A stretch of DNA of 61,596 bases, from positions 1-61,596 of IMG/VR virus record IMGVR_UViG_3300044858_001325. One strand, written 5' to 3'. The translations under genes were made by a program, and so were the position numbers. Positions 36,866 to 51,987 of this stretch are shown here, piece by piece. Below the pieces are notes generated by a model. It saw nothing but the letters and a program-made list of their open reading frames with translations, made no database searches and was not told where the DNA came from. Every line of letters starts with the position of its first letter. Positions within the stretch are counted from its first letter, which is position 1. The DNA comes from a virus (lineage: Duplodnaviria; Caudoviricetes).

Positions 36866-36867
36866 TC

Positions 36868-38454
36868 ATGGAGATCGCTGTAAAAGCCGAGGGCAACCTC
36901 GATGACGCAAGCTACTCAAGCTACATCCAGCGCATGAGCGCGCGGGTGTACAAGATCATTGAGAGTGGCCAGCCCCTTTTCAAGACCAGCGCCCAAGATC
37001 TATTCACGGTCTATCTCGACGCGCTACCCCAAGAGGATCGGCAGTATCACAACTGCTCATGCTGCCGCCACTTCATCAATCGCTTTGGCGGTCTGGTGAC
37101 GATCAGCGACGATGGCATCACCTCCTCTGTCATGTGGGAAGCGGAAGAAGCGCCTGCCTACTACCGCTCTGTGGTGACGGCTCTGCGCAACAAGGTCGCC
37201 CGAGCTGGCGTGGTTAGCCCGTTCCTGTCTGCCGATGAGGAGTGGGGTGACTTTCAGACTGGCCAGTGGACGCACTTCGCTGTGCGTCAGCCGCGCTCGG
37301 CCCGATTCTTCAGCGGACTGCTTACGCCCGGCCAAAAGATGGCCGAGAAGCGCGAGGACTTCAAGAACGTCAGTCGCGCCCTGTCTGAGTTCACCAAGCC
37401 GATGGTGGCCCAGGCTCTGAAGCTGTGCGACACCGACTCCTTGTACCGCAGCGAGAAGGTGCTTGGCAACGCCCGGTGGCTGCACGACTTGCAGGAGAAG
37501 ATGGAGAAGGTGGCCGTGCCGCGCAACTACCTGTGGAAGGCCGTGGCCCTGGCGCCCGCTGGGTTCTGCCATGTGCGCAGCTCCATGATCGGCACGCTGT
37601 TGGAGGACATTGCCGCTGGCATGGACTACAACACCGTGGCTCGCCGCTTCAAGGAGAAGATGCACCCCCTGCAATACCAGCGCCCCCAGGCTGCACCGGC
37701 TGCCGGGAGCATCAAGCGTGCGGAGGAGATTGTCGAGAAGCTGGGCATCGCCCCTTCGCTGGAGCGCCGCTTCGCCACGCTGGCCGATGTGCAGCAGTGG
37801 CTTTGGGTGCCCAGCGCCGAGGAGATTGCCAAGCCCAATGGCGTGTTTGGACACCTCAAGGCCAAGAACAGTCAAGATGTGGCCGACATGAAGGTGCCGC
37901 CCGTGGTCATGACTTGGGAAAAATTCCAGCGTGTCGTGCTGCTGGGCGCCGACAGCATCCAGTTCTACGTCCGCCCTGGCCGTGGCCCGTTCACCGCGAT
38001 GGTGACGGCTGTGCATCCAGATGCGCCGCCCATTCTGTTGTGGGATCACGAGGAGCATCGCAACCCTGTGTCCTCCTATGTGTGGCACTCTGGGTCGCCG
38101 TGCGAACAGTGGGGCTTGAGTGCTGGCTGGGTGGACGTAACAGGTGTTACCTACCGTCCGCACATGTGGTCTGGTGAGTACCCCAACCAGACGACCGGCG
38201 TGATCTTCCTGCTCAAGGGTGCAACCGAGTCCCGAAACGGCGGCTTGGCTCTGTTCCCCGAGATCTTGAAGGGTGAGTTGCGCGAGGTACGCTCTGTCAT
38301 CGAGGCCCACTCCCGCAGCGCGGAGCTGGCCGACATGCGCCAAGGCAATGCCAACGGTATTGGCTTTGACAAGGGCAAGGCTGGGTTTGAGTACCTGTTT
38401 CGCGTGACGAGCAAGGGCCAGACCGTGGACTACAAACTAGACCGTTGGGACTGA
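36868..38454 (+). CDS. Large hypothetical protein with HNCSCCRHF motif
   Basis: AAGGAG RBS; 528 aa with typical codon usage. Confidence 0.75.
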   Translation: MEIAVKAEGNLDDASYSSYIQRMSARVYKIIESGQPLFKTSAQDLFTVYLDALPQEDRQYHNCSCCRHFINRFGGLVTISDDGITSSVMWEAEEAPAYYRSVVTALRNKVARAGVVSPFLSADEEWGDFQTGQWTHFAVRQPRSARFFSGLLTPGQKMAEKREDFKNVSRALSEFTKPMVAQALKLCDTDSLYRSEKVLGNARWLHDLQEKMEKVAVPRNYLWKAVALAPAGFCHVRSSMIGTLLEDIAAGMDYNTVARRFKEKMHPLQYQRPQAAPAAGSIKRAEEIVEKLGIAPSLERRFATLADVQQWLWVPSAEEIAKPNGVFGHLKAKNSQDVADMKVPPVVMTWEKFQRVVLLGADSIQFYVRPGRGPFTAMVTAVHPDAPPILLWDHEEHRNPVSSYVWHSGSPCEQWGLSAGWVDVTGVTYRPHMWSGEYPNQTTGVIFLLKGATESRNGGLALFPEILKGELREVRSVIEAHSRSAELADMRQGNANGIGFDKGKAGFEYLFRVTSKGQTVDYKLDRWD

Positions 38455-38456
38455 TC

Positions 38457-38696
38457 ATGGAAGCCACTATCTCATTCACACCGATGCCCATCTCGGACAT
38501 CAAGTTCCAGCACGGCGAGGACTTTCTGGTCTACGCCCCGCTGGATGACATCACCGGCTTGGAGCTGGCCAACATGATGCACCTGTTCACGATTGCAACA
38601 TTGCAGTCCAGCAACAACGGGTGGTATCTATATGACTACCCCGAATTTATCGAGCGCAAACGACTCATGCGCCATTTCAAAAAGGAACCAAAATGA
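38457..38696 (+). CDS. Hypothetical protein
   Basis: Fills the gap; ATGA overlap downstream. Confidence 0.6.
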   Translation: MEATISFTPMPISDIKFQHGEDFLVYAPLDDITGLELANMMHLFTIATLQSSNNGWYLYDYPEFIERKRLMRHFKKEPK

Positions 38697-39406
38697 CCGT
38701 TCACAAGAAACTCATGGATGCACGCATCGCGCTGCACGCCATGCCACTGAAGAAGTCGGGGTGGAATGACTTCTCCAAGTATTCCTACTTTGAGCTAGGC
38801 GACTTCCTTCCCGAGACTCTGAAGCTGTTCCACGCATCCAACCTGTGCGGCGTTGTGACCTTTGAGGTGGAGATCGCCAAGCTGACGCTGACGGATCTGG
38901 ATGACGGCACCGAGCTGGTTATCACCAGCCCGATGGCCGAGGCCGCGCTCAAGGGTGCGCACGCCATTCAGAACCTGGGTGCGGTGCAGACCTACATGCG
39001 CCGCTACCTTTGGGTCACTGCGATGGAGATCGTTGAGAACGACTACCTTGATCACGTCCACAACAAGAACGCACCAGCACCTTCTCCCAGGGCGCCCAAG
39101 CCTGCGGATCCGCCTGCGCCTCGCTCAGTGGCACCCAGGCCACCGGCCACCATAACGGGCCAAGAAGGCGCTTGGCAACTGAAGGTGACCTTGGAGCACG
39201 GGGGTGACATTCAGAACTGGCTGGGCGTGATTGATGACGCCTGCAAGCTGGCGCTTGAGATGGCGCAGAGCGAAGCGGACGTGATGGCAATCTTCAAGAA
39301 GAACAAGCAACTGTTCGATGAAGTCAAAAAGCAAGACGCCGATTTCTTCAGGGGCCTGATGGCCAAATTCACAGCGGCCAAGAGCCAATTCACGGAGGCA
39401 GCATGA
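38693..39406 (+). CDS. ERF-family ssDNA annealing protein
   Basis: KSGWNDFSKYSYFEL, QNLGAVQTYMRRY. Confidence 0.85.
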   Translation: MTVHKKLMDARIALHAMPLKKSGWNDFSKYSYFELGDFLPETLKLFHASNLCGVVTFEVEIAKLTLTDLDDGTELVITSPMAEAALKGAHAIQNLGAVQTYMRRYLWVTAMEIVENDYLDHVHNKNAPAPSPRAPKPADPPAPRSVAPRPPATITGQEGAWQLKVTLEHGGDIQNWLGVIDDACKLALEMAQSEADVMAIFKKNKQLFDEVKKQDADFFRGLMAKFTAAKSQFTEAA

Positions 39407-39747
39407 GCAATTTTGTACCGAAACCCAACACTGGGACGTTGTGGCCGAACGACCGCAAAACATCGGCCAACCAGCCTGACATGCGCGGTGATCTGGCGCT
39501 TGACCGCACATTCCTGCAAGACATGATTGACAAGTCCGAGGGTGATCTGGTGAAGATTCAGATCTCCGCATGGGACAAGGTGATCTCTGGCAAGAACTGC
39601 CTGTCTATGAGTGCATCGGCGCCCTATGTAAAGCCTGATGCCCAGTCTGGCGGCCAGCAAGCAGGCGGCTATCAGCGGCCCGGCGCCAGACAGCAACCCG
39701 CGCCAGCTCCTGAGCGAGATGTTCCCGATGAAGACATTCCTTTTTGA
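39403..39747 (+). CDS. Single-stranded DNA-binding protein-like
   Basis: QPDMRG...ISAW; acidic DEDIPF tail. Confidence 0.75.
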   Translation: MSNFVPKPNTGTLWPNDRKTSANQPDMRGDLALDRTFLQDMIDKSEGDLVKIQISAWDKVISGKNCLSMSASAPYVKPDAQSGGQQAGGYQRPGARQQPAPAPERDVPDEDIPF

Positions 39748-39762
39748 CGTGAGGAGAACACT

Positions 39763-39927
39763 ATGAACTGGGGTGGCATTGCATTTGTGGTGTGGATCAT
39801 CGCGGCGTGGTTCACGCATATCGTCGTCTGCCTCTCAACGGCGGCATGGGGCTTCCTGATTGCAGGGGCCCTGCTGTTTCCGATTGCATGGGTGCATGGC
39901 ACGGGCATCTGGTTTGGGTGGTGGTGA
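39763..39927 (+). CDS. 54-aa Trp-rich membrane protein, absent from the ORF track
   Basis: GAGGAG RBS; two TM helices. Confidence 0.7.
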   Translation: MNWGGIAFVVWIIAAWFTHIVVCLSTAAWGFLIAGALLFPIAWVHGTGIWFGWW

Positions 39928-40349
39928 TGAAGACCTCCCAATTTGAAGCCGTCAAGGTTGCGCTCAAGCAGGACAAGACAGGCTACGTCCTGACCTTGTG
40001 CCTGCACCCGGACGAGATCCCGGAGGAGCTGCTGCGCGACTATGTGGGCGCCCGGTATCAGGTGGTGATGGTGAGGCTGGACGGACACGAACAGCCTATG
40101 GATCGGCAGGAGGAGTTTGCCGGTGACCGTGCCATGAAGATTGCCGGGGCCCTCTGCCGCGATGAGCGGTTCTGGGTTTACCTGCATGACGACAACCAGA
40201 TCATCGAGCCCAATGAGCTGGAGGCCGTTGAGTGGCTGCGCGAGTACCTTGGGGTGTCTTCGCGCGCCGACCTCAAAACCAATCACGAGGCCAGGATCCG
40301 CCTGGAGTCAATCAACATGGAGTTCACGAAATGGAAGCAAGGAAACTGA
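39927..40349 (+). CDS. Hypothetical protein
   Basis: TGATG coupling; MKTSQFEAVKVALKQ start. Confidence 0.7.
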   Translation: MKTSQFEAVKVALKQDKTGYVLTLCLHPDEIPEELLRDYVGARYQVVMVRLDGHEQPMDRQEEFAGDRAMKIAGALCRDERFWVYLHDDNQIIEPNELEAVEWLREYLGVSSRADLKTNHEARIRLESINMEFTKWKQGN

Positions 40350-40612
40350 TCCCATATTCGGTGTACCTCCCTCCTGAGTATCACGCGAAGCTCAAGGAAG
40401 TGGCCAAGGAACGAAAAGCCTCGGCCATGATCCGCGATGCAATCCTGATGATCTTGGATGGGACGGACGCCTACAAGGGTGGGTACAACAAGGGCGTGCG
40501 AGACAGCGCGCAAGTGGTCTATGAATGCGATGAGGCCCAAATGGTGGCGGTCAAGGGCCGCGACCTTGGCGCCATTCTGACTGAGCGAATCAAAGAATTG
40601 GAGATGCGATGA
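40331..40612 (+). CDS. Ribbon-helix-helix-like DNA-binding protein
   Basis: YSVYLP..HAKLKEVA..SAMIRDAI. Confidence 0.55.
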   Translation: MEARKLIPYSVYLPPEYHAKLKEVAKERKASAMIRDAILMILDGTDAYKGGYNKGVRDSAQVVYECDEAQMVAVKGRDLGAILTERIKELEMR

Positions 40613-41280
40613 CGGATGCAATCGTAGGGGTAACAGGTGTTACCGCCGTTGGCGGAACCAACGACGAGTACGAGTTCACAACCAACTGGTTTGAGTACGG
40701 CGCCTTGATTTGGAGCAACATCATTGAGCACCTTCCGAAGCCCACGAGGCCGAGGAGGTTCATGGAGATCGGGTCTTTTGAGGGCCGCAGCGCCGTCTGG
40801 ATGATCGAGAACATGATGAAGCCGGGCGACAGCCTGTACTGTGTGGACACTTGGGAGGGAGGGGCCGAGCACAAGAAGATTGACATGGAGGCCGTCGAGA
40901 GGCGGTTCGACAAGAACATCCAGACCGCCTTGGCCAAGACGGGGCTGAAAGCTGGCGACATTCACAAGATCAAGGGTTCATCGCTGTACACCTTGGCGCA
41001 CCAGCTCCGCTGGCTGCCCACACCGTCCCAGCGGTTTGACTTCATCTACATCGATGGCAGTCACGAGGCGCCGGATGTGCTGACAGATGCGGTGCTGGCG
41101 TGGCCTCTGCTGCACTACGGCGGGATCATGGTGTTTGATGACTACCTGTGGGGCGACCCCAGGCTGCCGCTTGGCCGACCCAAGATTGCAATTGATGCCT
41201 TTATGAACATCTTTGGCGGTGAGATCAACGTGATGCACATCAGCTATCAGGTTGTCATCAAGAAGACGAGGTTGCCATGA
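40609..41280 (+). CDS. Class I SAM methyltransferase (Methyltransf_24-like)
   Basis: MEIGSFEGRS, CVDTW, FDFIYIDGSH, GGIMVFDDY. Confidence 0.9.
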   Translation: MTDAIVGVTGVTAVGGTNDEYEFTTNWFEYGALIWSNIIEHLPKPTRPRRFMEIGSFEGRSAVWMIENMMKPGDSLYCVDTWEGGAEHKKIDMEAVERRFDKNIQTALAKTGLKAGDIHKIKGSSLYTLAHQLRWLPTPSQRFDFIYIDGSHEAPDVLTDAVLAWPLLHYGGIMVFDDYLWGDPRLPLGRPKIAIDAFMNIFGGEINVMHISYQVVIKKTRLP

Positions 41281-41471
41281 ATGACGCGCTGAAACATGAA
41301 ATCATTGACCTGACGGTAGAGGCTGTAGAAAAGGCTTACAAGATGGGCCTGACAGCCGGAGTCAAGGCCGAAAGAGAGGCTTGTGCGAAGGTGGCCGACA
41401 AGTGGAGCAAACGTGACGATGACGTTGGTGCATTTATAGGCAGAGCCATCCGAGCAAGGGGGCAAGCATGA
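41277..41471 (+). CDS. Small EREACA-motif protein
   Basis: AEREACAKV...AIRARG. Confidence 0.7.
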   Translation: MNDALKHEIIDLTVEAVEKAYKMGLTAGVKAEREACAKVADKWSKRDDDVGAFIGRAIRARGQA

Positions 41472-41614
41472 AGAAAATTCTTTGCTGGATTTTTGGACAC
41501 CGCAACACCATCAGTTGCGTGGCCGATGGGCAAGTTACGCACGACAGGTGCGAACGATGCGGCGCTGATCTACCCATCGCGTACCCCCACCATCAATCAA
41601 GGGGGCAGTCATGA
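41468..41614 (+). CDS. 48-aa Cys/His protein, absent from the ORF track
   Basis: MKKILCWIFGH...CERCG; ATGA overlaps at both ends. Confidence 0.65.
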   Translation: MKKILCWIFGHRNTISCVADGQVTHDRCERCGADLPIAYPHHQSRGQS

Positions 41615-41832
41615 TCCGTCTGACCTACACGCACATCTGCGACCTGTGCAAGAAGCACATTGACGAAGAAAAATTTGAATGCGCCAACTACCTGCTTGGC
41701 GAGTTCCCACGACCAAAAAACCACTACACCTATCAGATCGGTTACACGGCTGAAATGTGTAATGACTGCGCTGCGCCCATCATACAGGCCCGTTACGAGG
41801 TGATAGAGAAGTGGAAAAAGGAGCAAGCATGA
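41611..41832 (+). CDS. Small Zn-finger protein
   Basis: CDLC...CNDC. Confidence 0.7.
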   Translation: MIRLTYTHICDLCKKHIDEEKFECANYLLGEFPRPKNHYTYQIGYTAEMCNDCAAPIIQARYEVIEKWKKEQA

Positions 41833-42107
41833 AAGAAGACATCATCCGCATGGCGCGTGAGGCTGGGTGGCACGATGAACTTTTGTCGGTGTCATTCACG
41901 ATGCCTTTGCTTGAACGCCTTGTCACCATCGCCGAAGACGCGATGGTAAAAAGAATGCACGCTGAAGGCTTTGTCACCGTCGGCCACATGCGCCAGCAGA
42001 TCGCAGCCGAGCGCGAGGCGTGTGCGGAGGTGTGTGACAGCGAAGCCACGATTGAGGGCATAGCGCAGAGATGCGCCGCCGCCATCAGAACAAGGGGGCA
42101 GGTATGA
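41829..42107 (+). CDS. EREACA-motif protein
   Basis: DIIRMAREAG...AEREACA..CAAAIR. Confidence 0.7.
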   Translation: MKEDIIRMAREAGWHDELLSVSFTMPLLERLVTIAEDAMVKRMHAEGFVTVGHMRQQIAAEREACAEVCDSEATIEGIAQRCAAAIRTRGQV

Positions 42108-42376
42108 GCGAGTTCGATGTCAGGGTCTGTGGAATACCTTGCGTCGTGCGCGTCATCCATTGGGAGCGGCACGTCCCTGCTCGCATCTCTGGGCCACCGG
42201 AGAACTGCTACCCCGCCGAGGGTGGATACGGCGACTACGAGCTGCTGGACAGGCGTGGGCGCCCGGCCAAATGGCTTGAGCGCAAGATGACCGACAGGGA
42301 TAGGAACGAACTGGACGAGGCCGTCTTCAACCTCATGGAGAGTGGCGATGATTCCTTTGATGACTGGGAGAGATAA
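42104..42376 (+). CDS. Hypothetical protein
   Basis: GIPC...LDRRGRPAKWLERK; ATGA overlap. Confidence 0.7.
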   Translation: MSEFDVRVCGIPCVVRVIHWERHVPARISGPPENCYPAEGGYGDYELLDRRGRPAKWLERKMTDRDRNELDEAVFNLMESGDDSFDDWER

Positions 42377-42565
42377 ATGACTGAGCTTGAAGATCTGCGC
42401 CTCCAGTTGGAGCGCGAACGTGAATTGCGCAAGCGCATCTGCCGCGAGATTTACGAGGTTTGGGCTGGCAGCGATGGCATCCCTGCGCCTCAATCGCCAT
42501 CTGAGGGGTATCTCATGAAGCTGTTGGATGACGTTAGAGACATTGCCAAAGGAGGGTTGCAATGA
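42377..42565 (+). CDS. Hypothetical protein
   Basis: Contiguous operon packing. Confidence 0.6.
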   Translation: MTELEDLRLQLERERELRKRICREIYEVWAGSDGIPAPQSPSEGYLMKLLDDVRDIAKGGLQ

Positions 42566-43194
42566 GCTACATCGTGGCATCTTTGCCGCCCTTGAAGTGC
42601 TTTGTTAAGCGAGAGTTTTTGTACAACCACACCAAGGGTCATGGCGAGTTTGAGCCTGCAATTTGGGTCAGCATCAAAGCACTGCGCGGCCAAGTGTTCC
42701 GCATTGAGTCGCTGCTGCCGAACTATGGCGCGCTGTACGACAAGCTGCCGATCAGCGCCTACGTTTGGAAAGAAGGACATGGCGACTTGCCTATCGACAC
42801 GCTGCAACTGTGGGACTGCATGGGCTACCGCTTTACCGTGTGTGAGAAGATCGGCTTGCGTAATCTTGGTGTGAAGTTTTTAGGCAAGGACAAGCAGTGG
42901 CACCACGGGCACTATCTGTTTACGGTGGACTTCTGCGCTGACGGCATGGATGTAGACACCGGGTTTACCGAGCAAGCCGAGGAGCACAAGTCTTTCAACT
43001 TCATCAAATTAGAAAACGGTCAGTTTGCCTGCCAGCCCAACAACCGATGTCTGTGGTACGACCAAAGCCTGATTCCATCCGAGGTCAAGTTCCCCGACTT
43101 CCAAGCCGCCAAAACTTTTTGGACTGTTGACGGCACGCGCAAGTGGTCTGCGGGTGACGATTGGTTTTACGACATAAAGGAGAAGAACACATGA
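42562..43194 (+). CDS. Conserved hypothetical phage protein
   Basis: LQLWDC, YLFTVD, EHKSFN, QPNNR motifs. Confidence 0.75.
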   Translation: MSYIVASLPPLKCFVKREFLYNHTKGHGEFEPAIWVSIKALRGQVFRIESLLPNYGALYDKLPISAYVWKEGHGDLPIDTLQLWDCMGYRFTVCEKIGLRNLGVKFLGKDKQWHHGHYLFTVDFCADGMDVDTGFTEQAEEHKSFNFIKLENGQFACQPNNRCLWYDQSLIPSEVKFPDFQAAKTFWTVDGTRKWSAGDDWFYDIKEKNT

Positions 43195-43892
43195 CAACAC
43201 ACATCACGAAGACATGGTTCGACGGCGAGAAGGTGATAACGCAGGAAATCCCTGAGTCTAAGGTTTACGAGCAGAAGCCGTTGGCGTGGGCAGATGAAAT
43301 CATTGACGACCTAAACGCCTTATTCGACAGCGAAATGATTAGAGAGAACGACTCCGGCGATGCGCTTATCCGGTTAGATGCCGCTATCTGTGCGGTGGAA
43401 GAAGCTGAACAAAGGCACACCACCCCACCCGCAGCACAGCCAGCACCTGTGCAGGAGCCTGTGGCGTGGCCTTGTTTAATTGAAGAAGCTGATTTCTCGC
43501 AAAACACGGTGACATTAGCCATGCAATGTGAAGATTACAAAGTTTCTGCTGGAAAACATTGGCTATACACCACCCCACCCGCAGCACAGCAGGAGCCTGA
43601 CGCCTACGGCTATGCAAAATGCCTTGCTGTCGCAATATGGGATCAGCACTACAAGGATGTAGCGCCGCAGTGGAAGCCGTTTGACAATCTGATGGGCGTA
43701 CTCACGCAGATCGACAACATGACCGCAGGACTGACCGCCCAGAACCAGCGCCAGCCGCTGACGGATGATCGGATCGGCCAGATCATCGAGCAGTGCAAAA
43801 TCACTTTGGTCAACTATTGCAGTGGCGAAAAGCAAACCGAGTTTGCCCGCGCCATCGAAGCCGCGCACGGCATAAAGGAGAAGAACACATGA
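43191..43892 (+). CDS. Mosaic hypothetical protein (QEPVAW / LYTTPP / AIEAAHGI modules)
   Basis: Flanked by a 22-bp direct repeat; internal repeat. Confidence 0.7.
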   Translation: MTTHITKTWFDGEKVITQEIPESKVYEQKPLAWADEIIDDLNALFDSEMIRENDSGDALIRLDAAICAVEEAEQRHTTPPAAQPAPVQEPVAWPCLIEEADFSQNTVTLAMQCEDYKVSAGKHWLYTTPPAAQQEPDAYGYAKCLAVAIWDQHYKDVAPQWKPFDNLMGVLTQIDNMTAGLTAQNQRQPLTDDRIGQIIEQCKITLVNYCSGEKQTEFARAIEAAHGIKEKNT

Positions 43893-44110
43893 GCAACGAA
43901 TTCGCTTTCCCACACACCACCGAGCACCTGCACCAGCCGGTGACGGCAGGGATGACGCTCAGGGACTACTTCGCGGCCAAGGCGATGCAAACCCTGTTGG
44001 GCAGCGAATACACCAGTAAACACGGACTGCATGAGGGGTGGATGGTTGCGCTTGCTCATGAGTCCTACATGGTGGCCGATGCCATGTTGAAGGCGAGGGG
44101 CCGGGCCTGA
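43889..44110 (+). CDS. Small GMTLRDYFAAKAM-family protein
   Basis: Common phage motif ending ADAMLKAR. Confidence 0.75.
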   Translation: MSNEFAFPHTTEHLHQPVTAGMTLRDYFAAKAMQTLLGSEYTSKHGLHEGWMVALAHESYMVADAMLKARGRA

Positions 44111-44376
44111 TGCTTAGCAAAAATCTCTCGGCCAAGGACAGGCAACATCTGGCCAAGGTGAAAGAGCTTCCTTGCGGGGTATGTGGCCGAGCTGGGCCGT
44201 CGGATGCGCATCACATCGAGCAGGGACTGCACCACCTGTGCATACCCTTGTGCAAAGACTGCCACCAAGGCAGCCACAACGGGCTCCACGGGCGCCGGGC
44301 CATTTGGAACGTCATGAAGAAGACCGAGCTGTCGGTGCTCAACGACACGATCAAGCGGCTCACCCAGCCCGATTGA
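44110..44376 (+). CDS. Ref/DUF968-like HNH-Zn protein
   Basis: CGVC, AHH, IPLCKDCH. Confidence 0.7.
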   Translation: MLSKNLSAKDRQHLAKVKELPCGVCGRAGPSDAHHIEQGLHHLCIPLCKDCHQGSHNGLHGRRAIWNVMKKTELSVLNDTIKRLTQPD

Positions 44377-44402
44377 CGGGGCCGAAATGCCTGGGCCATA
44401 AT
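44373..44402 (+). promoter_or_regulatory. Sigma70-like promoter of the sRNA
   Basis: TTGACG-18-CATAAT. Confidence 0.6.
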
Positions 44403-44405
44403 GCT

Positions 44406-44504
44406 GGTGTCCAAGCCTCCTAGCAGTGGTTCTCGGACAACCGGATGTTCACATCCAACCCCCCCGACCCCTAGGGCATAACTGCTCTGGGGGTCTTTCT
44501 TTTT
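44406..44504 (+). ncRNA. Candidate trans-antisense sRNA (~100 nt)
   Basis: Own promoter and terminator, no ORF, anti-SD loop CTCCTAGCAGTGGTT. Confidence 0.6.
44466..44504 (+). terminator. Rho-independent terminator
   Basis: 13-bp stem GACCCCTAGGGCA/TGCTCTGGGGGTC followed by TTTCTTTTT. Confidence 0.85.
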
Positions 44505-44580
44505 GCACGGCAATCACATAAAATTCATGTGCCTGTACTCACAGGCATTCATGTGAACAATCCTAAAATGAAAGACTGCT

Positions 44581-44793
44581 ATGGCCATCGCACAACGCAT
44601 CTACATCGTCACGACCAGTGACGGCACTTCCCGCCTCGTGAAGGCATCTTTGCGCCAGCAGGCGCTCTCCCACGTCGCCAACACGCTGTTCACCGTTCGG
44701 GTGGCCAGCCAGGACGATTTGGTGAAGGCGCTGACCTCTGGTGCGACCGTCGAGAACTACAAGGACGCCGACCAGATGGAGATCCAGGGGTAA
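44581..44793 (+). CDS. Small conserved phage protein
   Basis: RIYIV...RLVKA...QALSHVA...VASQDDLV. Confidence 0.75.
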   Translation: MAIAQRIYIVTTSDGTSRLVKASLRQQALSHVANTLFTVRVASQDDLVKALTSGATVENYKDADQMEIQG

Positions 44794-44909
44794 CACCTGT
44801 TACCGTCCCCGGTTCGCCGGGGCCAAGACGCATGGGGATTGGATGCCTACCGCAGGCCCGTCTGATCAACGAGAGCAGGGTTGAACTCCCTGCTCCAGTC
44901 CCCAGCCGT

Positions 44910-45022
44910 GTTGGTGTAGCTCAGAATGATCCCCAGCATAAATTGAAACTGGGTAGTCGGCAGACGAATGGGAGAGCGCCCTCGGCAGGGGGAGGTCGCG
45001 GGTTCGATCCCCGTCTCCAACA
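44910..45022 (+). ncRNA. tRNA-like element with expanded D-loop and no canonical anticodon loop
   Basis: TAGCTCAG...AGAGC, AGGTC GCGGG TTCGATC CCCGT, acceptor stem GTTGGTG/CTCCAAC. Confidence 0.6.
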
Positions 45023-45031
45023 ACCTATCAA

Positions 45032-45547
45032 ATGGACACTGAAGACAAGCTGGCATGGTGCGCCGAAGCAGAAAAAGACGAGCAGGAGTTCGTCAGGGTT
45101 CGCCTGCCCCAGCTCCAGATCCGGGGCGTGGTCAACCCCGAGAAGTTCGCAGACCCATTCACCCACGATCTCACCCTGATCATCCAGGCCGACTTGAAGT
45201 CGGTCAGGACGCCGCTGTTCAAGGCCAGTGAGATCTACGGCATCGACCCCCAGTACGCCGTCACCTTCAACGTCAAGGATGCGCTGCGCTACCGGGAGCT
45301 GTACCCCAACATCATCGTGGTGTTTGACGTGCGCTGGGACACCCTGGAGTGGACTGACAAGCACGGCACCACCTATCGCGTCGAGCCCATGCACGCGACC
45401 TTTGCCGGGTTCCTGAGCGACATCCGCCGGGCCATCATGAAGGGTGGCAATCAGGTGCTCAGCTACCAGCGCCGCGTCGATGACAAGGCGGGCAACGCCA
45501 AGCACAGCTACGTCTTTGATGTGCGAGAACTACACCGCCTCGGTTGA
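45032..45547 (+). CDS. Hypothetical protein, possible PD-(D/E)XK nuclease fold
   Basis: HDL...ADLKS pattern; typical codon usage. Confidence 0.6.
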   Translation: MDTEDKLAWCAEAEKDEQEFVRVRLPQLQIRGVVNPEKFADPFTHDLTLIIQADLKSVRTPLFKASEIYGIDPQYAVTFNVKDALRYRELYPNIIVVFDVRWDTLEWTDKHGTTYRVEPMHATFAGFLSDIRRAIMKGGNQVLSYQRRVDDKAGNAKHSYVFDVRELHRLG

Positions 45548-45551
45548 CCAC

Positions 45552-45581
45552 TTGCGCAGTCGCCAAACTTGTGGTTAGAAT
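45552..45581 (+). promoter_or_regulatory. Putative promoter of the replication-operon leader
   Basis: TTGCGC-18-TAGAAT. Confidence 0.5.
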
Positions 45582-45617
45582 GGCGGTGCTAGGACGTGGA
45601 ACTCCGCAGCAGCAGCG

Positions 45618-45706
45618 AAAGCCGTTAAGTCAGATCCCGACCCCGAATGGGGTGCCGTTACCGAAAGGTGGCGGGTTCCACCGGGGTCTGTCTTAACGGC
45701 TTTTTT
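45618..45706 (+). ncRNA. Three-way-junction RNA / attenuator (c4/CI-like architecture)
   Basis: Long closing stem AAAGCCGTTAAG/CTTAACGGCTTT, two inner hairpins, U-tract. Confidence 0.6.
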
Positions 45707-46068
45707 GCTTTCCACACCCAGCCGTACTCCGCACGACAGCAAGAGCCTGCATGGGCTGCGCGGAAGGAAACACACGGCGATCTCGACACCCCGGATCTGC
45801 CGTACCAGCCTGTCAGCGAGGGACTGGTGTAGTCGGTAGGACAAGGGTGGAGTGCCAAGCCTGCCGATGAACGAATCGCTGCCTCCGGGGGACTGGGGTG
45901 GGGTCTGTCACTGACTCCCTGCCTGGGTCATGGGTGGTGATCCACCCCTTGGGGGAACTGGGTGAGCGATGTCATGTGATGACATGGGGGGTAATTCATC
46001 TGCGATATAGAGGGGGTTGGATTGCGCGGGGGTAGGCCGTAAACTGTTCGTCTTTGCTAGGAGAAACA

Positions 46069-46911
46069 ATGAAAAAATTAAATCTCGCGGCCATCAGACT
46101 TGATGGCTCGACACAGGCGCGAATTGCGCTTGATTCATCCCAGGTGACCGAGTACGCCGAGGCCATGCGGGACGGGGACAAGTTCCCACCCATCGTGGTG
46201 TTCCACGACGGCAGCGATTACTGGTTGGCAGATGGGTTTCACCGATACCACGCAACCAAGCAGAACGGCTTCACAAGCATCGAGGCCGAGGTCAAGACGG
46301 GCACGGTGGAGGAGGCGCAGATATATGCTTTCGGTGCCAATGCAAAGCGGGGGCTGTCAACATCACACGAGGACAATCGCAGCATCATCGTCAGGATGCT
46401 GAATCACCCGATCAGCAGCACATGGACAAACGCAGAGATCGCCCGGCATGTGGGCGTATCCAAGATGACGGTAGGCCGCATCAAGGCCAGCCTGGAGCAG
46501 AAGGAAGACTCTCCTCAAGACTCCAAGAAAACTTACCAGCGCAAGGACGGCAAGCAAGTCACCGTCGATACCAAGAAGCTGGTTACCAAGAAGGCCCAAC
46601 CCGAGGCTGAATCCCCAGAACAAGACGAGCGAGATCACAAGATCGGCGAGCTGCTCGACACCATCAATGACCTCAACACTGAGAACCAGCGGCTCAAGGA
46701 CGTGATCGCTGCGCAGCAGTGGGACGCATCGGACATCGAGCGCATCGACATTCACGAAACGCTGGTCGAGTTGCGCGGTCAAATCAAAACCCTGGAGATC
46801 GACAACCACGCGCTGCGCGACAGTCGGGACATGTTCCAAAGCCGCAATGCTGAGCTGATGAAGACGGTCAAGGTCTTGCAGGGGAAACTGAAAAAGCTGG
46901 AAACAGCCTGA
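46069..46911 (+). CDS. ParB/Srx-fold protein with HTH and coiled coil
   Basis: TQAR, PPIVVF, LADGFHR; WTNAEIARHVGVSKMTVGRI HTH. Confidence 0.85.
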   Translation: MKKLNLAAIRLDGSTQARIALDSSQVTEYAEAMRDGDKFPPIVVFHDGSDYWLADGFHRYHATKQNGFTSIEAEVKTGTVEEAQIYAFGANAKRGLSTSHEDNRSIIVRMLNHPISSTWTNAEIARHVGVSKMTVGRIKASLEQKEDSPQDSKKTYQRKDGKQVTVDTKKLVTKKAQPEAESPEQDERDHKIGELLDTINDLNTENQRLKDVIAAQQWDASDIERIDIHETLVELRGQIKTLEIDNHALRDSRDMFQSRNAELMKTVKVLQGKLKKLETA

Positions 46912-46970
46912 GATAGGGCGCGGTCGCCCTGGCCCACGCCGGAGGGATTCCGGTAGATGAAGGAGTGAAC

Positions 46971-48461
46971 ATGGAATTGATGCTGCGAGAGCATCAGCAG
47001 CAAGTCATTGAGGCCCTGCGCGAGGGATTTCGCCACGGCCATCAGGCTCAGTTGCTTTATGCCCCTACGGGGTTCGGAAAGACAGAGGTGGCCATCGCCT
47101 TGATGAAGGCCACGAAAGAGAAGTACAAGCGAGCTGCGATGGTGCTGGATCGCCTTGTGCTGGTGGATCAGACAAGCCTGCGTCTGTCCAAGTATCACCT
47201 GCCGCATGGCGTGTTCCAGTCGGGCCACTGGAAGTTCGACACGTCGGAGCGGCTTCAGGTGTGCAGCGCCCAGACGCTGGAGCGCAGAACAAAGTTCCCC
47301 CAGATCGATCTGCTGATCGTGGACGAGTGCCACATTGCGCGCAAGCAGACCGTTGAGTTCATCAAGGCCAACCCGAGTGTGAAGGTGGTCGGGCTCACTG
47401 CGACGCCGTTCACCAAGGGCCTGGGCGATGTCTACAAGCATGTGGTGTGCGGCGCCACAAACGAATGGCTGGTGGACAACAAGTGGCTGACGCCCCTGAA
47501 GGTGTTCATTGCCAAGGAGATCGACATGACTGGCGCCAAGAAGGTCGCGGGCGAGTGGGCCCAGGACGTGGTGACAGAGCGCGGCATGAAGATCACGGGC
47601 GACATCGTGGAGGAGTGGGTCAAGAAGACCCACGAGATCTTTGGCAAGCCTGAGAAGACCATCGTGTTTTGTGCGGGCGTAGCGCACGGCGCTGATCTGG
47701 TCGAGCAGTTTGCACGCAAGGGCTTCAACTTCGTGTCCATTTCCTACAAGGACAACGATGACTTCAAGCGGCAGGCCATCGAGGACTTTTCTCGGCCAGA
47801 CACAGAGATACACGGGCTGATCGCCACTGACATTTTGACGCGGGGCTTTGACGTGCCAGACGTGAAGATCGGCGTGTCGGCCCGGCCATTCAGCAAGTCT
47901 TTGAGCAGCCATGTGCAGCAGATGGGCCGCGTGATGCGCGCCCACGCCAGCAAGGAGTTCGGCGTGTGGCTGGATCACTCGGGCAACTACCTGCGGTTCC
48001 GGGACGACTGGGACGAGCTGTACGAGGCTGGCGTGCAGGAGCTGGACAAGAAGGTGGAGAAGGCCAAGAAGGAGCCCACCGAGAAGGAAAAGAAAGAGTC
48101 CAAGTGCCCGGCCTGCGGCCACTTGTGGCCACGCGGCATGGACATCTGCCCTTCATGCGGCCATGTGCGTCAAAAGCGCAATCAAGTCGAGGCCGTTGCC
48201 GGTGAGCTGGAGGAGCTGGCCACGGTCGGCAAGGCGAAGAAGGATGAAAAGCAGAGTTTCTACTCAGAGCTGGTCTGGTATGCCAGCCAGCGGGGCTACA
48301 GCCCCAACTGGGCAAGTCACAAGTACCGCGAGAAGTTTGGGGTCTGGCCTCGCGGCCTTGATTATGTGCCAGCCCCCACCAGTACCAAGACGGCGAACTG
48401 GATCAAGAGCCGCAACATAGCTTGGGCCAAGTCCCAGAGCAGAGTAAGGATGACAGCATGA
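46971..48461 (+). CDS. SF2 DExH helicase (RadD/UvsW-like) with Zn ribbon
   Basis: APTGFGKT, DECH, TAT, GFD, QQMGRVMR, CPAC/CPSC. Confidence 0.92.
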   Translation: MELMLREHQQQVIEALREGFRHGHQAQLLYAPTGFGKTEVAIALMKATKEKYKRAAMVLDRLVLVDQTSLRLSKYHLPHGVFQSGHWKFDTSERLQVCSAQTLERRTKFPQIDLLIVDECHIARKQTVEFIKANPSVKVVGLTATPFTKGLGDVYKHVVCGATNEWLVDNKWLTPLKVFIAKEIDMTGAKKVAGEWAQDVVTERGMKITGDIVEEWVKKTHEIFGKPEKTIVFCAGVAHGADLVEQFARKGFNFVSISYKDNDDFKRQAIEDFSRPDTEIHGLIATDILTRGFDVPDVKIGVSARPFSKSLSSHVQQMGRVMRAHASKEFGVWLDHSGNYLRFRDDWDELYEAGVQELDKKVEKAKKEPTEKEKKESKCPACGHLWPRGMDICPSCGHVRQKRNQVEAVAGELEELATVGKAKKDEKQSFYSELVWYASQRGYSPNWASHKYREKFGVWPRGLDYVPAPTSTKTANWIKSRNIAWAKSQSRVRMTA

Positions 48462-48562
48462 ACGACGAAGACATCAAGAGGGCCATTTTCAAGGGCAAGC
48501 TCTTGATCATTGGCATGGCGGCCCTGGCCGTTCTCATCGCACTGAAGTGGAGGTTTTCATGA
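48458..48562 (+). CDS. 34-aa membrane peptide, absent from the ORF track
   Basis: ATGA overlaps at both ends; LLIIGMAALAVLIAL. Confidence 0.55.
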   Translation: MNDEDIKRAIFKGKLLIIGMAALAVLIALKWRFS

Positions 48563-49422
48563 TTCAAGAACCGGAAGACGAAGCGTGGGACGAGGTGCAA
48601 AAGCGCATCGAGATGGAGCAGGCGTTGCGCGAGAAGGCCAAGGCCAACCCGATGGAGGCGCTGTACGAGGCCGTGCGCAGCGACAACCGAAGGAAGCAGG
48701 TAGGCATCATGCTGGCCATGCCGATGTTCGGGGGCATGTGCCACGGAGACTTTGCTCTGTCGATGATGCGCACGGTGCTGCTGCTGACCCAGCTCGGGTA
48801 TCGGGTGAGCACGCAGGCCATGTTCAACGAGTCGCTGATCACGCGGGCGCGCAACAACCTTGCGGCCACGTTCATGGCAGACAAGACGATGGACTACCTG
48901 ATGTTCCTCGATGCGGACATCCTGTTCTCGGAGCATGACGTGCTGCGGCTGCTGCTGGCGGATCGGGAGTTCTGCGGGGGCATCTACCCTCGCAAGGCCA
49001 TCAACTGGACGGGCGTAGCGGAGGCCGTGCGGGCAGGCAAGGACAACCCGGAAGACTGGTCGTGCAGCTACCTGTTCAACGCGGTCGGCATGGAAAACGG
49101 CGAGAGCGATGCTGACGGGATGATCGAGGTCACCCATGCGGCTACTGGCTTCCTGCTGCTGCGGCGGTCGGTGTTTGAGAAGCTGGCGCCGCACACCCAG
49201 ACCTACGAGGACGTGGTGCAGGGCAAGCCTTTTGTCGGCCATGATTTCTTCCGCGTCGGCGTCGGCGAGAACGGCAAGTACACCAGCGAGGACTACTGGT
49301 TCAGCACATCCTGGCGCAAGATCGGCGGGCGGATCTACTTGAACCCGTACCTGCGGCTGGGCCACATCGGCCAGCACACATTTAACGGCAACCTAGCCCG
49401 CATGGGCACAGAGGCCCTGTGA
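48559..49422 (+). CDS. Glycosyltransferase-like (GT-A) protein
   Basis: ESLITRARN, FLDAD (DxD), ATGFLL, SEDYWF, LGHIG. Confidence 0.8.
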   Translation: MIQEPEDEAWDEVQKRIEMEQALREKAKANPMEALYEAVRSDNRRKQVGIMLAMPMFGGMCHGDFALSMMRTVLLLTQLGYRVSTQAMFNESLITRARNNLAATFMADKTMDYLMFLDADILFSEHDVLRLLLADREFCGGIYPRKAINWTGVAEAVRAGKDNPEDWSCSYLFNAVGMENGESDADGMIEVTHAATGFLLLRRSVFEKLAPHTQTYEDVVQGKPFVGHDFFRVGVGENGKYTSEDYWFSTSWRKIGGRIYLNPYLRLGHIGQHTFNGNLARMGTEAL

Positions 49423-49739
49423 AGCGTGCGCGCCCGGATGCTGACTTCGTTGCTGAGCAGGCGCAGCGCATGATGGAGCTGTTGCAGCCAAGGGGCAATC
49501 TGAGCGCAGAAGATCGAGAGTATGCGGCGGAGCGGCTTTCAAAGATGCGCGACGAGCGGCTGCAAGGGATCTTCGTTGACTTGATTGGCTGGGGCGACGA
49601 TGAGCGGGCCGAGATCGAAACCTTTGTGGCCATTGCCATCGAGGTCATGAAGCGCACCAACGTCAGCAAGCTGCGCGAGTGCGCTCGGATCGTGGAGCTG
49701 CGGTACTGGATGAAAGACATGGACAGGGAGAAGGCATGA
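49419..49739 (+). CDS. Hypothetical protein
   Basis: GTGA/ATGA coupling. Confidence 0.65.
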   Translation: MKRARPDADFVAEQAQRMMELLQPRGNLSAEDREYAAERLSKMRDERLQGIFVDLIGWGDDERAEIETFVAIAIEVMKRTNVSKLRECARIVELRYWMKDMDREKA

Positions 49740-50617
49740 GATTTGAAGACTTTGCCCGGCTGCACGGGCTGCGCGTGGACAGTCTGATTCCAGGCCGCTG
49801 GGTGGCCGTCCCGACCGATGATCACCCCCGCAAGCGTAACGGGCGTTACCGTTGGCTGGGTGATGTGGGGTGGGTGCAGAACTGGGCAACGATGCAGGAG
49901 CCTGCCATGTGGCGCAGCGAGGAGCGGGACTACCAGTCGCCCCAGGTGCGGCGCGCGGTGGCCGATGCTGGCCGGGAGCGGCTGGAGCTGGCCAAGAAGG
50001 CTGCGAGTAAGGCCGGGTGGATCTTGCACCAGTGCAAGACAGACATTCACCCGTACCTTGAGAAAAAGGGGTTCCCGGATGAGTCCGGGAACGTGTGGAC
50101 GACCGAGGAAGGCCAGAGGCTTCTAGTTGTACCGATGCGGGCAGGATCCCGGTTGATCGGGGCCCAGCTCATCGATTGCGAGGGGAACAAGAAGTTCCTC
50201 TACGGTCAACAGACGAAGGGGGCATCGTTCACGATGGACGCAAAGGGCGCCCCAATCCTCTGCGAGGGATATGCCACGGCACTCAGCATCAGGGCCGTCA
50301 TGAAGGCCATGAAGGTGCGCTACACCATCCATGTGTGCTTCAGTGCAGGGAACATGAAGGATGTAGCGCGGGGCATCTCCGGGGGGATCGTCGTCGCCGA
50401 CAATGACCCGAATGGTGTCGGCGAGAAAGCCGCCCGAGAGACAGGTAAACCGTACTGGCTCAGCGATGCAGTCGGTGAAGACTTCAATGACTTTCATCGT
50501 CGTGTCGGTTTGTTCAAAGCCATGTCGTCCCTCAAGCGCGCCGTCTTTGCTGGTGGTAGTCCTGCCGCATCAAGCGCAGGAATTTCGCCTCAATCTGGCG
50601 CACCCGTTCTCGCGTGA
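49736..50617 (+). CDS. Toprim-domain primase
   Basis: HPYLEKKG, LVVPM, CEGYATA, VADND, GEDFND. Confidence 0.85.
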   Translation: MRFEDFARLHGLRVDSLIPGRWVAVPTDDHPRKRNGRYRWLGDVGWVQNWATMQEPAMWRSEERDYQSPQVRRAVADAGRERLELAKKAASKAGWILHQCKTDIHPYLEKKGFPDESGNVWTTEEGQRLLVVPMRAGSRLIGAQLIDCEGNKKFLYGQQTKGASFTMDAKGAPILCEGYATALSIRAVMKAMKVRYTIHVCFSAGNMKDVARGISGGIVVADNDPNGVGEKAARETGKPYWLSDAVGEDFNDFHRRVGLFKAMSSLKRAVFAGGSPAASSAGISPQSGAPVLA

Positions 50618-50828
50618 TACCGTGTGCCTTTGCTGCCTCGGTCAGTGGCGCCCCTTGCGCCCTGGCCCGCAGCATCTCCCAGTAACGCTCGACGTTTTCG
50701 CCTTTGACCCTTTTACCATAGAGGGCCCCGAAAGCCTCGCGTGAAGGGAAGTCCACCAGCAGGATCGGGTTGTCTGGGTGGCCTGTAGCAACGGGCACGC
50801 GGCCCCCGTAGAGTCGCAAATTGTTCAT
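50532..50828 (-). CDS. Sigma70 region-4-like HTH protein
   Basis: LTEAAKAHGITRERVRQIEAK. Confidence 0.75.
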   Translation of the reverse strand: MNNLRLYGGRVPVATGHPDNPILLVDFPSREAFGALYGKRVKGENVERYWEMLRARAQGAPLTEAAKAHGITRERVRQIEAKFLRLMRQDYHQQRRRA

Positions 50829-51043
50829 TGGATTTTTTCCTTGTCAGTGGGTGCAGAAAACGCCTCATAAACTTCGTCGATGACGCCGCAAACGTAGGAC
50901 TTGAAGGCTTCGCGCGGCACGAGGCCGTGAACCCCACAGTTCGCAAGATACCCAGTCAACAGCGGAATCAATTCGTTTAGCGAGGAGCCAGCAATTGCAG
51001 CGTCGATGCGCTCTGGTAAGGTTGGTCTGCTTTTATCAGTCAT
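50825..51043 (-). CDS. Hypothetical protein
   Basis: GAGG RBS; ATGA coupling. Confidence 0.6.
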   Translation of the reverse strand: MTDKSRPTLPERIDAAIAGSSLNELIPLLTGYLANCGVHGLVPREAFKSYVCGVIDEVYEAFSAPTDKEKIQ

Positions 51044-51603
51044 GCGCGCACCTCGGTGGCCTGGGCTTCGGAATACTTGGCCGATTCCATGCCCTCCGAC
51101 AGGCAGTATTCCAATTCGTTGTAGTAGCCCCAGCATGAATCGATTTCCTCGCCTTCCGGGTCGATCACTTTCCACCCGTACACCTGCCCCGTGATGTAGC
51201 CGTCCAGCGTTTTGATCTCGGCGCGCAGGCATTCCAGCACCTTGGCGCGCAGCTTGGCCGTGAGGATCTTTCCTCCCCACTCTTTCAGGGCTTTGGCCTT
51301 GGCCACATAAATCAGACCCACCATACCCGAGTCCCAGGGGCAGGAAAAGCCGGATGTGTTGATGGTGATCCCGCTGTGGTCGTACATATACACCGGCAGG
51401 GTGATGAGATCGGCGCGCTGCGCCAGCTCTTGCAGCTCCTCATTGCTGGCAGTGTCGTCGCCGAAGTCGTAGCGGCATCGGTCGTGCAGAACAACGGTTC
51501 CGAGGTTGTCCCATTCCTTGCGGGGGTTGCATGCGTCCTCAGACGTCCACACTTCGACGGTGTAGCCGCTGGGTCGGGTTTCGCGTGTCACTTGGTAGCT
51601 CAT
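51040..51603 (-). CDS. Conserved phage early protein (YMYDHSGIT...DSCWGYY)
   Basis: AAGGA RBS; recognisable motifs. Confidence 0.75.
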   Translation of the reverse strand: MSYQVTRETRPSGYTVEVWTSEDACNPRKEWDNLGTVVLHDRCRYDFGDDTASNEELQELAQRADLITLPVYMYDHSGITINTSGFSCPWDSGMVGLIYVAKAKALKEWGGKILTAKLRAKVLECLRAEIKTLDGYITGQVYGWKVIDPEGEEIDSCWGYYNELEYCLSEGMESAKYSEAQATEVRA

Positions 51604-51616
51604 GGTTTGATTTCCT

Positions 51617-51706
51617 TCAGATGAAAAGAGCCAAAAAAACCAGCAGCAGCCAGAAGATGGCCGCCACCAGCACAAGAAAGCCGCCACGGCGGCGGTGGTG
51701 TTTCAT
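51617..51706 (-). CDS. 29-aa membrane peptide, absent from the ORF track
   Basis: MKHHRRRGGFLVLVAAIFWLLLVFLALFI. Confidence 0.55.
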   Translation of the reverse strand: MKHHRRRGGFLVLVAAIFWLLLVFLALFI

Positions 51707-51987
51707 TGCTTGATGGCCAGGATTGGCGCCCGTTTGGCGCGGTCATAAATCCATTGAAAAAAGGACTCAAACGGGACATTGCTCCGCAGCCCTTCGCCTG
51801 TGACCAGCTCGACGCCATCGGGCACCGGTGCGCTATCGCGCGCCAGCATCAGGCGCCCAGGCTTGCCCGGCTTGCTGGGTCGGCAGTAGAGATAGAGCGG
51901 CTCGATCTGGCCACGGCTGGCCATCAGTCGAGATAGGGCCTGCCCCTGCTCCGCGCATTGCTGCACCAGTCTGGCGTATTCGTTCAT
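51703..51987 (-). CDS. Hypothetical protein
   Basis: AAGGGG RBS; coupled stops. Confidence 0.65.
   Translation of the reverse strand: MNEYARLVQQCAEQGQALSRLMASRGQIEPLYLYCRPSKPGKPGRLMLARDSAPVPDGVELVTGEGLRSNVPFESFFQWIYDRAKRAPILAIKQ

Follow-up and report, generated by a model that had tools for sequence, protein, structure and literature searches.

Does the 61,596 bp window analysed here, a whole IMG/VR virus record (IMGVR_UViG_3300044858_001325) from an uncultivated freshwater phage, encode a small RNA (sRNA) that acts in trans on the ribosome-binding sites (RBSs) of the phage's own mRNAs? The question is raised by a short non-coding unit (44373-44505, plus strand) at the 3' end of a DUF968-like gene. 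A preliminary description of this unit had read it as an anti-Shine-Dalgarno sRNA with several distant targets. We lean, by a little, towards a trans-acting anti-Shine-Dalgarno sRNA that would repress phage translation. This part of the description gained support from a family of similar units in related phages, from a target motif shared between them and from one case in which seed and motif co-vary. Its set of distant targets fared less well, since only one site in the window, the RBS of the leftward gene p59, is strong.

A candidate sRNA downstream of the DUF968-like gene

The unit starts with a sigma-70-like promoter, TTGACG-18-CATAAT (44373-44402, plus strand), which matches 10 of the 12 consensus positions and whose -35 hexamer overlaps the stop codon of the DUF968-like gene (44110-44376). 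In a scan of the 20-kb early region (34401-54400) it was among the four best promoter-like sites. The other three lie at 54140-54112 (leftward) and at 34875-34903 and 35067-35095 (both rightward), and all four share a -10 hexamer of the type CA(T/C)A(A/C)T. With a start placed from the -10 hexamer (± 2 nt) and an end at the T-run, the predicted sRNA would comprise approximately 97 nt (44409-44505, plus strand). It ends in an intrinsic terminator with T-run (44466-44505), the 13-bp stem of which (44466-44495) contains eight G-C pairs and closes a loop of 4 nt. This terminator ranked first of the 27 terminator-like sites in the same region. Promoter and terminator calls are consensus matches only.

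No credible open reading frame (ORF) was found in the unit, which holds only a 31-aa frame with a GTG start and a minus-strand frame antisense to a conserved gene. A small peptide encoded within the RNA was rejected as a candidate, the RNA offering just a nine-codon ATG frame without a Shine-Dalgarno sequence. The start of a minus-strand gene at the seed was rejected as well: the spacing would be 1 nt to a TTG and 16 nt to an ATG, and the frame runs antisense to a gene with 537 relatives. A search of 44373-44505 against Rfam at E values up to 10 returned no family match except a 10.5-bit match to IsrM at E = 5.

The predicted 97-nt RNA folds into three hairpins with a free energy of -39.5 kcal/mol (z = -5.1), and none of 200 shuffled sequences was equally stable. 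In both the minimum free energy and the centroid structure the 5' stem-loop (SL1, 44409-44438) presents UCCUAGCAGU in a loop of 10 nt (44418-44427). Its CUAG presumably fits the YUNR U-turn motif described for recognition loops of antisense RNAs. A small middle hairpin (SL2, 44443-44456) and the terminator complete the predicted fold. As read from the sequence, the seed with its anti-Shine-Dalgarno stretch is CTCCTAGCAGTGGTT (44417-44431, plus strand). The mean unpaired probability of its 8-nt core was 0.78 compared to 0.46 for the whole RNA, a value reached by 11 of 200 sequences with shuffled flanks. The promoter, the stretch of about 100 nt without an ORF, the terminator (in fact the strongest of the region) and the 5' stem-loop exposing the seed were thus all recovered as the preliminary description had them, the last as a predicted fold.

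Predicted pairing of the seed with start sites in the window

The seed differs by a single base from the plus-strand sequence CTCCTAACAGTGGTT at 54057-54071. The RNA would therefore pair over 15 nt, including one G-U pair, with the minus-strand mRNA, as had been proposed before and could be confirmed in the sequence. The paired segment AACCACUGUUAGGAG (54057-54071, minus strand) is the RBS of p59 (59 aa, 53869-54048), with its AGGAG 8 nt 5' of the ATG at 54048. p59 lies 9.6 kb away from the sRNA on the opposite strand and is the first gene past the leftward promoter TTGACA-17-CATAAT (54112-54140, minus strand, 11 of 12 consensus positions), which would drive its mRNA. No other contiguous stretch of the genome complements the RNA as well as this 15-nt match. 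RNAduplex energies were -27.5 kcal/mol for the p59 site, -26.2 kcal/mol for the best of 73 other start regions and -13.1 kcal/mol for their median. Whole-locus RNAduplex calculations with long seeds were swamped by long imperfect GC-rich duplexes, such that scores for contiguous pairing were used instead. When only start regions were considered and CTCCT was kept fixed while the flanks were shuffled, 54 of 5000 shuffles reached the p59 score with a 55-nt seed (413 candidate starts) and none of 300 did so with a 25-nt seed (309 candidate starts).

Weaker predicted targets are two identical copies of UUGCUAGGAG. One forms the RBS of the PD-(D/E)XK nuclease gene at 35592-36485 (35576-35585, plus strand; 10 nt with one G-U pair, RNAduplex -21.4 kcal/mol) and was absent from the preliminary description. 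The other forms the RBS of the ParB-like gene at 46069-46911 (46054-46063, plus strand; -17.3 kcal/mol). Here a pairing of 9 nt at 46055-46063 had been claimed; the site stands, while the pairing actually extends over 10 nt including one G-U pair. On both strands of the window GCTAGGAG occurs in three copies only, namely at these two RBSs and on the antisense strand of the seed. The possible split 6+5 pairing with AACCAC-N4-AGGAG (34916-34930, plus strand) in front of the first rightward ORF (orf41, 41 aa, 34939-35064) is present as described earlier. It contains a 4x4 internal loop, has an energy of -14.9 kcal/mol and ranks 31 by RNAduplex energy against 73 genes. Strong complementarity within the window is confined to the p59 site, each of the ParB, nuclease and orf41 sites being weak by itself.

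AACCAC as a second target element was also considered and set aside as a weak hint: it precedes three real starts (34916, 35563 and 54071; the copy at 35563-35568 is the one near the nuclease start), but its 34 copies genome-wide are about the number expected by chance. In the related contig L003, AACCAC is part of a repeated promoter-like motif, TTGACAGTCAACC.

Similar units in related phages

Scans of IMG/VR with the DUF968-like and the ParB-like proteins provided 158 related loci. Many of them contain a short unit in which a CTCC-containing stretch lies between a promoter and a strong terminator, either 3' of the DUF968-like gene or 5' of a conserved non-coding element and ParB. Family members were sought via the 8-nt core in these loci and via the 14-nt seed in IMG/VR, a choice of members in which promoter, terminator, position and placement in the loop played no part. 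Units of promoter, CUCCUAGC and terminator were found on at least eight other, otherwise unalignable backbones: L071/L183 (L071 being genome G002), L013 (G004), L098/L092, L100 (G003), L133, L169/L174 (G001), L186 and L211. The units of L013 and L071 are located directly 3' of the DUF968-like gene as in the window, those of L098 and L100 5' of the ParB gene. Promoters resembling that of the window precede the seed at the same distance on six backbones (L071, L013, L169, L186, L211 and L100).

The first 14 nt of the seed are identical on four other backbones (L071/L183, L169/L174, L186 and L211), which brings the 14-nt seed to five backbones including the window and the 8-nt core to nine. The 14-mer had 102 matches in IMG/VR. 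Seven contexts passed the terminator filter, five of which (four distinct RNAs) carry a sigma-70-like promoter 25-50 nt upstream, and 21 of the 102 matches are the reverse complement, located 3-12 nt before a start codon. In a full-length alignment the units have only the core and the terminator in common, and the units of eight relatives matched no Rfam family at the gathering score. The anatomy and the core shared with at least eight other phage backbones lend the core idea comparative support, which is stronger than that from the shuffle tests in the window.

All five RNAs with a window-type seed display the same 10-nt loop closed by C-G pairs, with differing outer stems (GUCC/GGAC, GACC/GGUC, CAUGAA/UUCAUG and GUCCUAU/GUAGGAC). 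In L013, L098 and L100 the first two or three bases of the core are paired locally, and in L133 most of the core lies within a stem. The unpaired probability of the core was 0.77-0.79 for the five window-type RNAs, 0.63-0.68 for the next three and 0.24 for L133; in eight of the nine RNAs the core is less paired than the RNA on average.

A shared start-site motif and one case of its co-variation with the seed

Across the 158 related loci and the window, GCTAGGAG has 71 distinct occurrences, of which 48 have a start codon 3-12 nt downstream; half of these (24 of 48) follow ACT or ACC. In these phages it is overwhelmingly an RBS word. Many of their small early, ParB and nuclease genes begin with AC(U/C)GCUAGGAG. 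The motif GCTAGGAG recurs at the ParB and nuclease starts of phages that are only 40-60% identical in protein; its ParB start sites were seen in L084, L089/L090, L101, L109, L104 and L013. A hairpin plus CCGCTAGGAG accompanies each of six or seven small leftward genes that follow one another in L100/L101.

The sRNA of G003 (L100) reads CTCCTAGCGG (...GCGG), and CC precedes four of the seven GCTAGGAG start sites of its genome (CCGCUAGGAG, CCGCTAGGAG). Where the RNA reads ...GCAG, CT or TT stands in front of the GCTAGGAG start sites. In a cross-table of seeds and genomes, the G003 seed matched seven of its own start regions at a threshold of at least 10, compared to one to three for non-cognate seeds in G003 and one to three for the G003 seed elsewhere. 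Shuffle tests carried out per genome gave 0 of 300 for the window, 0 of 300 for G001, 1 of 300 (maximum) and 2 of 300 (count) for G003 and 7 of 300 for G004, such that matches between seed and start sites exceeded the shuffles in four of the five large genomes. Eight further units were identified by position and bear other seeds; their loci are partial genomes. For the L102 unit, with its different seed, complementarity to start sites on the contig that carries it was equalled by 0 of 200 shuffles. L006 gave 6 of 200, with G-U-rich matches and doubtful ORFs, and the remaining units 26, 32, 109, 112, 149 and 173 of 200.

The individual targets in these genomes can be compared with those in the window. 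Two matches were obtained for the G001 sRNA, one of 13 nt at the nuclease ortholog (protein identity 71%) and one of 16 nt, including two G-U pairs, at a leftward gene of 54 aa. This leftward gene lies 9.6 kb from the sRNA, as does p59 in the window, and is not a homolog of p59; the flanking bases used in the G001 matches are other than those used in the window. A leftward gene of 117 aa is the best target in G004, with a match of 12 nt.

As a separate observation, runs of small genes, each following a G+C-rich hairpin and then (A)AC(C/T)GCTAGGAG, were seen in L100 and L101 and also in L092, L104/L105 and L108. These runs look like cassettes and may be processing or recombination units.

Weighing of alternative explanations

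A number of results weigh against a trans-acting repressor of phage genes. With the whole sRNA as query, nhmmer recovered only the sRNA itself and two near-identical contigs (3 of 159 loci including itself). That the core is invariant follows in part from the search itself, because the members were found through the motif. Tests of seed exposure were marginal: shuffles reached the observed values in 10-29 of 200 cases for the five window-type RNAs, in 47-72 for the next three and in 175 for L133. RNAalifold on a MAFFT alignment of the seed hairpins returned no consensus pairs, as the stems did not line up with one another, and the hairpin therefore rests on single-sequence folds. In unconstrained RNAduplex calculations with the 55-nt seed the p59 site is not among the top six, and by energy it leads the next start region by only 1.3 kcal/mol. 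Taken one by one, the 10-nt matches at the ParB and nuclease genes do not exceed chance, as 48 of 300 shuffles give as many start regions at the threshold of at least 10. The p59 gene is altogether absent from the close relative L003 (95-99% identical in the aligned flanks), which carries another first leftward gene and leader (window 53583-54314, L003 11460-11882); p59 is therefore a swapped module. Complementarity between seed and targets in relatives, a check already named in the preliminary description, gave mixed results. It exceeded shuffles in four of the five large genomes, and G003 showed the CGG/CCG co-variation. It did not do so in G002 (no excess, 58 of 300 shuffles) and in six of the eight units with other seeds, and the strongest targets of different phages are not orthologous genes.

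The lack of orthology among targets and the swapping of modules between close relatives would also be expected if the pattern were a by-product of recombination. Hairpin and AC(T/C)GCTAGGAG would then be shuffling or boundary cassettes, comparable to the promoter-stem-loop cassettes of T4-type phages, and 44373-44505 would mainly be an operon terminator with an inverted cassette and without a regulatory role. Motif and upstream hairpins do stand before six or seven adjacent genes in L100/L101, such repeated cassettes of hairpin and RBS could stay alike via recombination rather than through an RNA, and concerted evolution could yield the CCG/CGG match too. We nevertheless consider this explanation unlikely, given that on at least nine backbones the inverted copy always has a good promoter on one side and a terminator on the other and mostly occupies a hairpin loop, and that in the window the minus-strand reading lacks a usable start and is antisense to a conserved gene. 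Alternatively, the sRNA could be real and aimed mainly at host mRNAs or at another RNA, serving host take-over or as a sponge, with the phage matches being secondary. The CCUCCU core complements any strong Shine-Dalgarno sequence, RNAduplex energies of -20 to -26 kcal/mol were obtained with many start regions, and only one strong phage site exists in the window. The extension past the core, however, fits phage-specific motifs and co-varies in G003, and we regard a predominantly host-directed or sponge function as quite unlikely.

The unit might instead act in cis only, either as the 3' end (terminator or 3' untranslated region) of the rightward recombination operon or as a leader or attenuator, the promoter hexamers being fortuitous. 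It closes a 9.5-kb block of co-oriented genes, and a separate operator- or promoter-like region follows at 44510-44560. The promoter alone indeed proves nothing, because one match per 3.5 kb was seen and shuffled sequences give a mean of 1.2. Against a pure cis element speak the promoter-like hexamers found at the same distance before the seed on six other backbones, the next gene (44581), which has no Shine-Dalgarno sequence for the seed to sequester, and the downstream genes, which belong to replication and not to a late operon; this makes such an element distinctly improbable. That a terminator-proximal sequence resembles one RBS by mere chance we consider highly improbable. When the 55-nt 5' part was dinucleotide-shuffled, 110 of 1000 versions equalled the p59 score somewhere in the genome (G-U pairs counting half), and the test in G002 was negative, yet the tests restricted to start sites, the family and the motif statistics argue otherwise.

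Comparison with known regulatory systems

In its RBS-blocking mode of action the predicted RNA would resemble c4 of phages P1 and P7. The passage on c4 (immI) in a review describes a small phage RNA whose complementary stretches, thought to be looped, bind the target mRNA around the RBS and block translation (PMC12197685). Membership of the c4 family was not indicated by Rfam, where the window unit had no c4 match at E values up to 10. The family has the accession RF01695, and for c4 the review cites Citron and Schuster (1990). c4 lies upstream of its target icd-ant in one operon, from which it is processed. The window RNA, in contrast, has its own promoter, its strongest target lies 9.6 kb off on the opposite strand, and several unrelated genes share the target motif. 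P22 sar and lambda OOP are further short phage RNAs that lower the expression of a phage regulator by base pairing. They are cis-encoded and fully complementary to one overlapping target, whereas the window RNA would be trans-encoded with a short seed and several candidate targets. To our knowledge, the known RBS-blocking phage RNAs are systems of one RNA and one target (c4 within its own operon, sar and OOP as cis-antisense RNAs).

Pyrimidine-rich loops that pair with the G-rich RBSs of several mRNAs are found in the hairpins of Staphylococcus aureus RNAIII and in RsaE/RoxS, which are chromosomal bacterial regulators with UCCC motifs. Unlike these, the window RNA is phage-encoded and combines a 16S-like CCUCCU core with an AGCAG(U) extension, and the matching extended motif is present in the phage's own genes. 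A functional analogy exists with T4, for which a passage of the literature describes that RegB cuts GGAG in early start regions and that RegA competes with the ribosome on about 30 mRNAs (PMC3014915). There, too, many early initiation regions are addressed, but by proteins, whereas the window candidate is an RNA.

Two other types of short RNA differ in context or structure. The lambda PR'-tR' 6S RNA is a short transcript from the late promoter that is antiterminated by Q and lies after the antiterminator gene, before the late lysis and structural operon. In the window the unit is preceded by the DUF968-like gene and followed by a 70-aa ORF and the ParB-like, helicase and primase genes, with the structural genes starting from 54275. 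Protein-sponge RNAs of the CsrB/RsmZ type carry several GGA motifs in hairpin loops; the loops of the predicted fold contain no GGA, the seed loop being UCCUAGCAGU.

Genomic setting and neighbouring elements

The record is estimated to be 99% complete and has a G+C content of 59%. Terminase, portal and structural genes extend from 54275 through the record's end to 34401, and a single ORF of 3998 aa (22405-34401) closes the structural block. The rightward gene block begins at the sigma-70-like promoter at 34875 and comprises 9.5 kb of co-oriented genes, among them a small ORF, HNH, the PD-(D/E)XK nuclease, a kinase-like and an Erf-like annealing protein, with the DUF968-like gene (44110-44376) as the last. 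On the 3' side of the sRNA unit a 70-aa gene, a 171-aa gene, two non-coding elements and the ParB-like, helicase and primase genes follow in this order. The leftward block starts at the promoter at 54140-54112 and consists of small genes of unknown function.

INPHARED contained no close relative, and only four short matches of 34-111 nt were found there for 43000-46500. A search of bacterial genomes for prophage relatives returned distant ParB-domain matches only. The nearest bacterial ParB relatives are 42-45% identical and include those of Rhodoferax and Burkholderiaceae metagenome-assembled genomes at 42-44%. In L003 an 11-nt match to the same sRNA was seen at another leftward gene (start 9798).

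Several repeated sequences are present in the regulatory gaps and elsewhere. ATTCATGTG has three exact copies (34884-34892, minus strand; 44523-44531 and 44547-44555, plus strand), all in regulatory gaps, where they lie at the rightward promoter or follow directly after the sRNA terminator. One-mismatch copies were found at 34848, 34906 and 45994; with mismatches the total of 13 is no excess over the shuffle mean of 14.3. The copies are probably operator half-sites. The palindrome GGTAACA-NN-TGTTACC is repeated at 38133-38152, 40626-40645, 44786-44805 and 49832-49851, with a similar sequence near 34820, and is likely a protein-binding site. Comparable TAACA..TGTTA palindromes also occur 3' of the sRNA terminators in L005, L006, L010 and L011. 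Four consecutive small genes have a 17-nt junction with overlapping stop and start, CAAGGGGGCAAGCATGA and variants of it, in common (41455-41471, 41598-41614, 41816-41832 and 42091-42107); for the start region at 41468 RNAduplex gave -25.0 kcal/mol with the sRNA seed. A tRNA-like sequence at 44910-45022 scored 34.3 bits against the Rfam tRNA model (gathering score 29). Its acceptor and T arms are canonical, its D-loop region contains a 49-nt insertion, and ARAGORN made no call. It sits within a segment (44809-45031) that has no alignable counterpart in the near-identical contigs L002/L003.

A second small RNA candidate (~45552-45705) has a promoter, TTGCGC-18-TAGAAT, invariant GUGGAA...UUCCAC stretches and a 22-nt closing stem (45618-45639 with 45682-45703), and it ends in a T-run. 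It is kept in L082, L005, L007/L008, L099 and L004 and has no Rfam match. At its predicted 5' end (RNA ~45583-45705) lies the 8-nt complement of the seed, UGCUAGGA (45587-45594, plus strand, read from the sequence). This match had previously been noted and stands, but it had been assigned to the ParB leader and is not simply part of it, its place being in a separate conserved RNA candidate with a promoter and terminator of its own. In the alignment GCTAGGA is found at this position in L082 and L098 as well and not in L005, L007, L099 and L004. Pairing of the sRNA with the second RNA was not established: GCUAGGA is present at three of seven homologous positions (window, L082 and L098), and the seed of L082 itself is mismatched.

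The following non-coding element of ~270-300 nt (45705-46000) lies in a stretch that is non-coding up to the ParB start at 46069, and its DNA sequence is conserved in over 40 related loci (nhmmer E values down to 1e-45). RNAalifold on 16 sequences gave 38 pairs, 25 of them with double changes, i.e. clear compensatory changes, and no Rfam family matched. The element is probably a large structured RNA or leader 5' of the ParB-like gene. In L098 its slot between the seed-bearing sRNA and the ParB gene is filled by a Betaproteobacteria-1 RNA (9727-9843; RF02932, 89 bits), which hints at betaproteobacterial hosts.

Proposed mode of action and implications

In the mechanism that we propose, transcription by host polymerase would start at the early-type sigma-70 promoter, where the DUF968-like gene ends, and yield an RNA of ~97 nt that stops at the strong intrinsic terminator. 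The 5' hairpin would display UCCUAGCAGU in its 10-nt loop, and the loop together with its 3' flank would base-pair with phage mRNAs at their Shine-Dalgarno regions. The strongest target would be the p59 leader (15 bp) at the head of the leftward operon, and the start sites of the recombination nuclease and the ParB-like gene would be weaker ones. Pairing would occlude the 30S binding site and thereby lower translation; a destabilisation of the mRNA may contribute. The genes downstream of p59 start at or a few bases from the preceding stop, such that a polar effect on the operon is possible. Since the sRNA and early promoters belong to one class, the RNA would build up together with its targets and may serve as a delayed brake or in immunity. 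The sequences show the anatomy, the complementarity, the family in related phages, the extended Shine-Dalgarno motif that they share and one co-variation of seed and motif, whereas we infer the production of the RNA, its pairing in vivo, its repressive effect and its role in early-gene shut-off or immunity.

A broader proposal, which we put forward tentatively as possible rather than probable, is that the unit represents a widespread unannotated sRNA family in freshwater, probably Burkholderiales-infecting, phages. Its 16S-like anti-Shine-Dalgarno loop and short, specific extension would read an extended RBS code, AC(U/C)GCUAGGAG, on dozens of early, recombination and partition genes, such that one RNA, in the manner of the T4 proteins RegA and RegB, could control the whole class, with seed and code co-evolving between lineages. 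In the open-access papers and bioRxiv preprints searched no equivalent family was described. If the proposal is correct, a family would be added to the RNA databases, which now give no match, and a simple rule would hold by which the seed variant predicts the start-site variant. A single phage sRNA would then control a whole class of genes post-transcriptionally in uncultivated phages, and the co-evolution of seed and code could also set the specificity of immunity between related phages.

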